In this document: piece by piece, positions 3,447-5,814 of the stretch
How positions within the stretch are numbered: position 1 is the stretch's first letter
Layout of the letters: each line of letters starts with the position of its first letter
IMG/VR virus record: IMGVR_UViG_2740892230_000022
Strand: one strand, 5' to 3'
Source: a virus
Taxonomy: Duplodnaviria; Heunggongvirae; Uroviricota; Caudoviricetes
Length of the DNA stretch: 28,932 bases
Notes under the pieces: generated by a model
Told to the model about the DNA's origin: nothing
The model's database searches: none
What the model saw: only the letters and a program-made list of their open reading frames with translations
Position numbers and translations under genes: made by a program

Positions 3447-5814
3447 ATGTCGATTAAACATTATGATGTTGTCAGGGCGGCGTCGCCGTCAGACCTTGCG
3501 GAAAAGCTGACACACAAACTGAAAGAGGGCTGGCAGCCATACGGCGGACCGGTTGCCATTACGCCGTACACACTGATGCAGGCGGTGGCTATTGAAGGAG
3601 AGCCACAGGTCGGCCCTTCATCTGAGCCGGATTGGTACTACGTCATCGTACTGGCNNNNNNNNNNTCCACAGGTCGGCCCTTCATCTGAGCCGGACTGGT
3701 TCTACGTGGTTGTGCTTGCCGGACAGTCCAACGGCATGGCCTACGGTGAAGGGCTTCCGTTACCGGATTCTTACGATGCTCCGGATCCGCGCATTAAACA
3801 GCTGGCGCGCCGCAGCACGGTAACTCCGGGTGGAGAGAGTTGTACGTATAACGACATCATTCCGGCTGACCACTGCCTGCATGATGTGCAGGATATGAGT
3901 ANNNNNNNNNNAGTGACGCCGGGCGGGGCTGCCTGCAGATATAACGATATTATTCCGGCCGACCACTGCCTGCATGATGTGCAGGATANNNNNNNNNNTC
4001 CGGATTCATACGATGCGCCCCATCCGCGCATTAAGCAACTGGCCCGTCGTAACACAGTGACTCCCGGTGGTGAAGTATGCGTATTTAACGACATCATTCC
4101 TGCTGACCATTGTCTGCATGATGTTCAGGATATGAGTACGATTAACCATCCCCGGGCTGACCTGAGCAAAGGGCAGTACGGCTGTGTCGGCCAGGGCTTA
4201 CATATTGCCAAAAAACTGCTTCCGTATATCCCTAATAATGCGGGGATCCTGCTGGTACCATGCTGTCGTGGTGGTTCGGCATTCACCCAGGGCACGGAGG
4301 GGACATTCAGCGAGTCCACGGGGGCCAGTCAGGATTCGGCTCGCTGGGGAGTGGGTAAGCCGTTATATCAGGATCTGCTTTTCCGCACGAAGGCAGCATT
4401 GCAGAAAAACCCGAAAAACGTTTTGCTGGCGATATGCTGGATGCAGGGGGAATTCGATATGAAGAATGCCAGTTACGCCCAGCAGCCAGCAGCATTTCTT
4501 GCAATGGTACAGCAGTTCCGTGCTGATCTTGCCGGGCTGGCGGCGCAGTGTCACGGTGGAAGTCCGGCATCAGTCCCCTGGATTTGTGGCGACACGACAT
4601 ACGCGTGGAAACAAGAACACGGTACACAATATGAAGTGGTATATGGTGCATATAAAGGTAAAGAATCCCAGCAGATTTATTTTGTTCCCTTTATGACCGA
4701 TGGTAGCGGAGTTAATACACCGACAAACAACCCGTCAGAAGATCCTGATATTGCCGGGTCTGGTTATTACGGTTCGGCATCCCGAACGAACAAAAACTGG
4801 GTATCATCAAATCGCCCGACGCATTTCAGCTCATGGGCGCGTCGTGGCATTATTCCCGATCGTATGGCAACTGCTATTCTGAACGTAGCCGGTCGCACCT
4901 TAGCCTTCATTAGTGGTAAGGCACCGGAAATCAAACCCTCGCCCGGCGGCGACACTCCATCGGGGCCGTCTGATGGTGACACATCCGTTCGTACAGTCTC
5001 CCTGCTGCCGACAGCCGGAGAGGCTGCTGCGCAGGGCTGGACCATCACCGGCGGCAGTGTTGCGCTGGAAGATGGTGTGTTTAAGGTTACCAAGCAGAGC
5101 AATAAAACTTGGTCCCTGATGCATCCGGTGGATGACGCAGTCTCCCTGCTGACACGGGNNNNNNNNNNGCCATCGGGGCCGTCTGAAGATGCATCCGTAC
5201 GCACAATCTCCCTGTTGCCGACAGCCGGAGATGCTGCTGCGCAGGGCTGGAGCATTAAGAATGGCGGAATTCAGTTGTCAGATGGTGTATTTAAGATCAC
5301 CAAGCAGAGCAATAAAGCCTGGTCCCTGACGCGCCCGGTGGATGACGCAGTCTCCCTGCTGACACGGGGTGGCAGACTGAGCTGTAAGTTTCGACTGTCA
5401 GGCGCACTGACCAACAACCAGTTCGGTCTGGGAATTTATCTGTATACCGATGTAGCGTTACCTGACGTCGTGGCGATGACCGGGACTGGTAACCCGTTCC
5501 TGATGTCGTTCTTCACCCAGACCACAGACGGCAAACTGAATCTGATGCATCACAAGAAAGCAGGAAACACAAAGTTGGGCGAGTTCGGGAATTACAGTAA
5601 CGACTGGCAGACGCTGGAGCTGGTGTTCACCGCCGGCAGTGCCACGGTTACTCCGAAACTGAATGGAGTGGCTGGCCCGGCATTCCAGGTCATAAAAGAC
5701 AGTCTGACAGTGGGACTAAATGCACTGACGCTGACGGATATTACCAAAAATGCAACGTATGGCGTTGAGATAGAAAGTCTGGTGCTGGAGATAAATGCAC
5801 CGGCATCATCATAA
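3447..5814 (+). CDS. nanS-p: prophage sialate O-acetylesterase NanS-p-like (DUF1737 N-domain + SASA/SGNH esterase + C-terminal beta-rich domain); composite across four N10 joins
   Basis: ATG 3447 after GGGAGA. N-terminus MSIKHYDVVRAASPSDLAEKLTHKLKEGWQPYG is DUF1737-like; the YVVVLAGQSNGMAYGEG esterase motif follows. Stop TAA 5812-5814. Frame shifts at the N10 at 3656. The duplicated segments at 3829-4130 are overlapping alleles, not tandem repeats. Confidence 0.8.

Follow-up and report, generated by a model that had tools for sequence, protein, structure and literature searches.

Alleles of the prophage esterase gene nanS-p strung together across N10 spacers in an Escherichia coli contig

The IMG/VR virus record IMGVR_UViG_2740892230_000022, a stretch of 28,932 nt analyzed here over its whole length and called the window below, carries fragments of several genes that we assign, on domain content and homology, to nanS-p, the prophage gene of a sialate O-acetylesterase with the architecture DUF1737-SASA-DUF6645. 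The window consists of 35 ACGT segments, named S01 to S35 in window order, which are joined by 34 spacers, every one of them a run of exactly ten N (N10). It equals the complete contig CCPR01000287.1 of NCBI assembly GCA_000752855.1, with identical stored DNA, and the record of this contig is filed among the NCBI genomes; a search for publications that cite the accession found none. The features of the esterase fragments and of the spacers between them are collected in Table 1.

Each of the three domains was recognized in the window. Pfam DUF1737 was found in the translations of S05 (E=5.7e-17) and S23 (E=2.6e-6, above the gathering score), SASA in that of S08 (E=3.6e-11) and DUF6645 in that of S09 (E=3.7e-20), and all three domains are present in the full-length relatives. 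Against solved structures, the S08 translation gave E=3e-107 with NanS/YjhS (PDB 3PT5; 295 residues) and the S09 translation E=1.1e-31 with PDB 6YP6, deposited as 'NanS-p'; the GQSN block was found in the translation of S06 (LAGQSNGMAYGEG). Alleles identical or near-identical to those of the window lie in the late region, from Q/methylase/tRNA to the holin gene, in E. coli 55989 and 2013C-3264; within the window, the methylase and tRNA segments S03 and S04 precede S05.

A total of seven functional nanS-p genes are known in EDL933 and five in O104:H4 C227-11, and activity of the kind expected of NanS-p, which deacetylates Neu5,9Ac2 and supports growth on it, was shown experimentally for EDL933 and O104:H4 alleles (PMC8065619). 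Allele diversity has been documented in all three NanS-p domains (PMC10462455). The genes of the window resemble the NanS-p of enterohaemorrhagic and Shiga toxin-producing E. coli (EHEC/STEC; z1466 of EDL933, vb_24B_21 of phage phi24B, PDB 6YP6) in the three-domain architecture, in the presence of several diverged copies per genome and in the lambdoid gene position. They differ in that stx lies beside no copy in the window, that the genes are seen only as fragments, and that one copy belongs to a P2-like prophage, after lysC, rather than to a lambdoid late region. The chromosomal NanS of E. coli (YjhS, PDB 3PT5) shares a homologous SASA/SGNH esterase core, but lacks the N-terminal DUF1737 and the C-terminal DUF6645 and is not prophage-borne (PMC8065619).

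A block of 25 residues, VTPGG(ESCTY/AACRY/EVCVF/EGCTY)NDIIPADHCLHDVQD (VTPGG…DVQD), is encoded in frame at four places of the window. The first-pass annotation of this DNA had described four copies of this block with distinct substitutions, the first three separated by N10 alone; both points hold, and its coordinates were off by a few bases only. The 75-nt copies show 4-18 pairwise differences and are 76-95% identical to each other. In the five more divergent pairs, codon position 3 takes 11-13 of the 15-18 differences, which leave 3-4 amino-acid changes. BLAST comparisons from segment to segment gave E-values from 3e-12 to 6e-97, far beyond chance. Alignment to four full-length reference genes revealed that all four alleles are represented together only across the 77-nt S07, against one to three in the rest of the gene. 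Overlaps bearing single-nucleotide differences, which had likewise been noticed elsewhere in the window, were seen in the methylase (S01/S02/S03), gpJ (S16-S19), gpN (S25-S28), gpQ (S28-S30) and the O-like and YdaT-like genes (S32-S35).

Table 1. Predicted nanS-p features and adjoining spacers of the window. L015 and L016 are two lambdoid prophages of 2013C-3264; L014 is the P2-like prophage locus of 55989.
Feature	Position	Strand	Evidence or remark
First 11 codons (MAFKHYDVVRA) of one nanS-p allele, 3' end of S04	3287..3321	+	translation
S05, N-terminal DUF1737 part of another nanS-p allele (MSIKHYDVVRA...)	3447..3655	+	Pfam DUF1737
N10 spacer S05/S06	3656..3665	.	flanks overlap by 54 nt
S06, nanS-p fragment with block ESCTY	3666..3901	+	100% identical to L015
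Block allele ESCTY	3820-3894	+	in S06 (3666-3901)
N10 spacer S06/S07	3902..3911	.	span of S06 contains whole of S07
S07, 77-nt stand-alone graph branch with block AACRY	3912..3988	+	100% identical to L016
Block allele AACRY	3913-3987	+	in S07 (3912-3988)
N10 spacer S07/S08	3989..3998	.	span of S08 contains whole of S07
S08, SASA esterase core with block EVCVF	3999..5158	+	99.7% identical to 55989 lambdoid paralog WP_000874529.1
Block allele EVCVF	4057-4131	+	in S08 (3999-5158)
N10 spacer S08/S09	5159..5168	.	overlap ~200 nt, 84% identity; S08 end is a 34-nt exact match to S09
S09, C-terminal DUF6645 part of a further paralog	5169..5928 (stop codon 5812-5814)	+	100% identical to third 55989 paralog WP_000143130.1
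S10 head, last 81 nt of the P2-like-borne esterase gene	5939..6019	+	S10 100% to L014 21853-22059; gene end L014 21933
S15, sibling P2-like allele, lysB/lysC then directly tail gene R, no esterase gene	8709..9311	+	L014 comparison
S23 coding part, 5' third of the P2-like-borne esterase gene, block EGCTY	14057..14686	+	100% to L014 20001-20682
Block allele EGCTY	14393-14467	+	in S23 (14005-14686)
S24, continuation of the P2-like-borne esterase gene	14697..15299	+	100% to L014 20684-21286

Comparison with complete genomes identifies the variants as real alleles on the sequence evidence, because S06, S07 and S23 are 100% and S08 is 99.7% identical to annotated SASA/DUF6645 genes in independent complete E. 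coli genomes. Only the fragmentary state of the contig speaks for a single nanS-p gene whose 'alleles' are sequencing or assembly noise, a reading to which we give practically no credence in view of these identities, of differences that are concentrated at third codon positions while all frames stay open, and of a divergence (5-24%) far above error rates. Sequencing error, which the first-pass annotation had itself named as the outcome that would speak against its claim, was rejected on the complete-genome identities and the codon-position pattern. Its core inference, namely several related prophage copies with multiple nanS-p paralogs, is supported by the same matches. Its wording 'closely related' fits in part: the copies are related, but the blocks are only 76-95% identical and one of them comes from a P2-like rather than a lambdoid prophage.

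The alleles of the window were traced to separate intact genes. The single genome 2013C-3264 has S06 and S07 in two different lambdoid prophages; the two genes are ~57 kb apart, each preceded by a tRNA cluster and followed by a holin gene. S08, S09 and S23/S24 match three esterase paralogs of the enteroaggregative E. coli (EAEC) strain 55989, two of them lambdoid and one P2-like (the last being WP_000202153.1, 100% identical to S23/S24/S10). The S07 and S08 alleles were also found on separate viral contigs of the IMG isolate 2695420632. The number of esterase places per genome with a match has a median of 2 and a maximum of 15. Multiple prophage-borne nanS-p copies per E. coli genome are already known and are illustrated here once more. 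Strain 55989 shares ~9 kb of its P2-like prophage with segments of the window at 100% identity. Unlike its three paralog loci, the window holds S06 (at most 96% identical to them) and S07 (at most 90%), as well as a second P2-like allele set that is 90-99% identical to 55989.

Among the lambdoid fragments, the N-terminus encoded at the end of S04 occurs also in a 55989 lambdoid paralog and in paralog A of 2013C-3264, and S05 is a mosaic of L016 and L015, with partial-length identities of 90% and 95%, respectively. The best match to S06 is at least 99% identical in 540 E. coli records, and all 40 matches listed are 100% identical. Annotated esterase genes that match S07 at 100% are present in 18 complete E. 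coli genomes; a 59-nt pattern from S07 has nine matches in IMG/VR other than the window and three in unrelated contigs of JGI/ENA metagenomes, and this exact pattern was absent from the GTDB representatives. S08 up to segment position 957 probably represents two collapsed copies, because the two lambdoid paralogs of 55989 have only three differing sites over S08 positions 1-957, with divergence afterwards, and S09 starts exactly at S08 position 958. Upstream of nanS-p, a pair of tRNA(cat) (tRNA-Ile in the RefSeq annotation) and tRNA-Arg(tct) genes is present twice, at 1140-1392 in S03 and at 2532-2764 in S04; these two lambdoid late-region alleles are 85% identical over ~680 nt.

The P2-like-borne esterase gene is placed between lysC and tail gene R. 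S23 starts inside lysC (14005), in agreement with 55989, where WP_000202153.1 follows lysC, and is 100% identical in six genomes. A sibling of this allele, S15, passes from lysis genes directly to R: its positions 2-113 match L014 19889-20000 and its positions 183-603 match L014 21975-22395, and it is collinear with the P2-like prophages of many complete genomes at 99.5-99.7%. In the allele made up of S20 (13679-13764), S23, S24 and S10 (5939-6145), which is 100% identical to 55989, the 1.88-kb esterase gene is inserted at this lysis-to-tail junction. The gene is thus a cargo-gene presence/absence polymorphism at the P2-like lysis-to-tail junction within one assembly. The insertion between lysC and R, with a sibling allele without the gene in the same assembly, is a minor noteworthy point. 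In the literature found on the gene, nanS-p is described only in lambdoid/Stx phages.

S06 (3666-3877) and S23 (14263-14474) were further observed to be 95.8% identical over 212 nt, with only 74-85% identity in the remainder of both genes. As a sequence pattern, this suggests that the esterase genes of unrelated phage types have exchanged parts in mosaic fashion. A broader role of nanS-p, as a mobile module of cargo that passes from one phage type to another unrelated one, is put forward as a tentative idea that we hold to be possible rather than probable; if true, nanS-p would give the lambdoid and P2-like prophages of one cell a bridge for recombination.

The reason why the alleles lie side by side is found at the segment ends. 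A total of 17 consecutive segment pairs overlap, with the 3' end of the first lying over the 5' end of the second, over 54-332 nt, gap-free and at 85-95% identity. All 17 overlaps open with a mismatch at the first base of the following segment (chance ~2e-19), and exactly 34 matching bases close the overlap in 13 of them (chance ~1.6e-27), where both probabilities use the pooled overlap mismatch rate of 7.9%. S06, for instance, ends exactly 34 nt past its last difference from the S07 lineage. Overlaps that start on a mismatch and end on 34 matches are therefore the signature of a de Bruijn graph with k-1=34. The 34-nt suffix recurs exactly elsewhere in the window for 18 of the 35 segments, non-adjacent siblings included (that of S24 is found in S08), and no segment prefix of more than 11 nt is repeated. 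Ten segments are 100% identical to 55989; in seven cases, the 60 nt that come before the segment in that genome are found exactly in another segment of the window, and in the cases checked, such as S11 before S12, they sit immediately before the start of the overlap. Compared with the P2-like prophage of 55989, S10-S30 stand in scrambled order and orientation, and S23 and S24, on either side of an N10, are separated by exactly one base in the 55989 reference. The juxtaposition of alleles across N10 is a scaffolding artefact and not a genomic arrangement; the joins bear the marks of branches of a k=35 de Bruijn graph chained one after another.

A real tandem array of partial nanS-p fragments, in which the N10 spacers are small true gaps, would account for the fact that S06, S07, S08 and S09 stay in one frame across the spacers and thereby form an apparent open reading frame (ORF) of 740 aa (3592-5814). 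We consider such an array highly improbable and judge it refuted by the k-1 overlaps and by colinearity with separate intact genes: the flanks overlap with the k-1=34 signature rather than abut, the fragments align colinearly with intact full-length genes, a different one for each, and no array was found in complete genomes, where the best single place stacks the pieces onto one gene at ~88% identity. The 740-aa ORF is an artefact of segment joining. A second ORF (14057-15328; 423 aa) reads through two spacers in frame and is called as a gene on the public CCPR01000287.1; its product is an annotation artefact in the public collection.

In the graph origin that we propose, a short-k de Bruijn assembler (node overlap 34, k=35) would have been unable to separate the paralogs and would have collapsed their identical stretches. 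At diverged stretches both branches would be kept; printed without the leading k-1 bases, each would start where divergence begins and run on for k-1 bases after the last difference. Paired-end scaffolding would then chain the alternative branches, at a negative estimated distance, with a minimum spacer of 10 N, so that the contig would be a linearised tangle of graph nodes and not a colinear piece of chromosome. With the bubbles of short-k de Bruijn scaffolds the window shares the fixed N10, the starts at the first divergent base, the 34-nt ends and the collapsed identical stretches. Unlike strict de Bruijn nodes, several window segments have some 35-mers in common, and the nodes would be partly repeat-resolved. 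The assembler was presumably Velvet-like, as Velvet omits the k-1 prefix of successive nodes and writes a minimum gap of 10 N, a minimum for which a literature search gave no relevant support.

Three observations weigh against a graph of this kind. In four of the 17 overlaps, the closing run of exact matches is 13, 2, 19 or 20 bases long instead of 34. S07 ends 6 nt earlier than the comparison of S06 with S07 predicts, perhaps because another part of the assembly holds a fifth block allele. Finally, 187 of the 35-mers occur in two segments; on this count the strict unitig model, in which each 35-mer is present once, was rejected.

We regard it as probable that the source is one genome whose paralogs were left unseparated by the short-k graph assembler. 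The source E. coli genome would then hold at least five nanS-p copies, with four distinct sequences in the block. Lambdoid prophages would carry at least four of them, behind the methylase and tRNA cluster, and a P2-like prophage would carry one, flanked by lysC and R; all copies would share one cell, together with another P2-like prophage of ~95% identity to the first. The first-pass annotation had left the choice between several prophage copies and several strains. Several prophages in one genome are more likely, as the window is a contig of an NCBI genome assembly.

A mixed sample of at least two E. coli strains, one 55989-like and one STEC-like, whose alleles were tangled in assembly (mixed culture, contamination or metagenome bin), is an unlikely source, though one with several observations in its favor. 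The 55989-like set comprises S08, S09, S23, S24 and ten P2-like segments at 100%, S06 and S07 form a set typical of STEC O26/O111/O145/O157 genomes, and the P2-like prophage is present in two alleles ~95% identical with long identical stretches. No complete genome in the collection is shown with all four block alleles in match tables that list the best place per record only, and the lists of 100% matches to S07, S08 and S23 intersect only at 55989, and there only for S08 and S23; these two results also count against a single source genome. The filing of the contig's record among NCBI genomes argues against a mixture, and complete single genomes reach the 15 esterase places mentioned above and up to six P2-like lysC-R places. 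Moreover, STEC 2013C-3342 and 2015C-4498 each hold the 55989-type P2-like allele at 100% together with eight esterase places, and therefore the sets coexist in single strains. We thus retain paralogs of one genome as the probable origin.

The comparison with 'EHEC-type' E. coli made in the first-pass annotation was not borne out, as the window contains no stx and the best overall relative is EAEC 55989. A Shiga toxin (Stx) ORF is absent downstream of both tRNA clusters of the window, over ~520 nt in S04 and ~700 nt in S03, and the arrangement of a Stx-converting prophage, with stxAB between the tRNA cluster and nanS-p, was not found in the window. The tail of S03 matches the non-Stx lambdoid phage mEp460 at 98.4%.

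The presence of lambdoid and P2-like DNA in one contig conforms to the same graph. The esterase versions of the two phage types have exact 35-mers in common (40 for S06/S23 and 13 for S08/S23), and the lambdoid and P2-like sub-graphs are linked because of them; the esterase gene in both phage types would thus tie lambdoid and P2-like nodes into one scaffold. A second link is given by ~270 nt in S30 (21663-21933), which match the P2-like prophage of 55989 as well as lambdoid prophages in other genomes. Two known facts are illustrated once more, namely that both pathogenic and commensal E. coli have several diverged NanS-p esterases on prophages and that short-read assembly fails on such paralogs. 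The meaning of the case is mainly one of caution: nanS-p counts, prophage typing and 'tandem repeat' calls from such records would mislead, and the public gene calls on CCPR01000287.1 include fusion ORFs through N10 spacers.

Several further observations concern the remaining segments. The starts of S11 (6158-6200) and S13 (8350-8392) are mutual reverse complements over 43 nt at 97.7% identity, which shows that two graph nodes leave one point of the P2-like lysis region in opposite orientation and that the scaffold flips strand there. The 3' end of S19 (13517-13668, 152 nt), in the P2-like tail-fibre gene, matches two further staggered fibre positions of 55989 at 85% and 75%; the segment ends in repeats internal to that gene. 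S30 (20449-24074) joins, without a break, a P2-like portal-proximal part (99.9% identical to 55989) to the lambdoid early genes DUF4406, Ead/Ea22 and DUF977. It is probably chimeric, either a misjoin or a rare mosaic, because this join is covered by no complete E. coli genome in the collection searched. Short direct repeats (TATCTGTATCTTTATCTGT and relatives) were found in the O-like replication gene at ~26560-26720 (S32/S33 junction) and at 26709-26754 / 26979-27024, and S33 contains an internal repeat of 85% identity; by analogy with lambda O, the repeats in the O-like gene may be origin iterons. The DnaC-like product of 25221-25967 has thousands of matching records.

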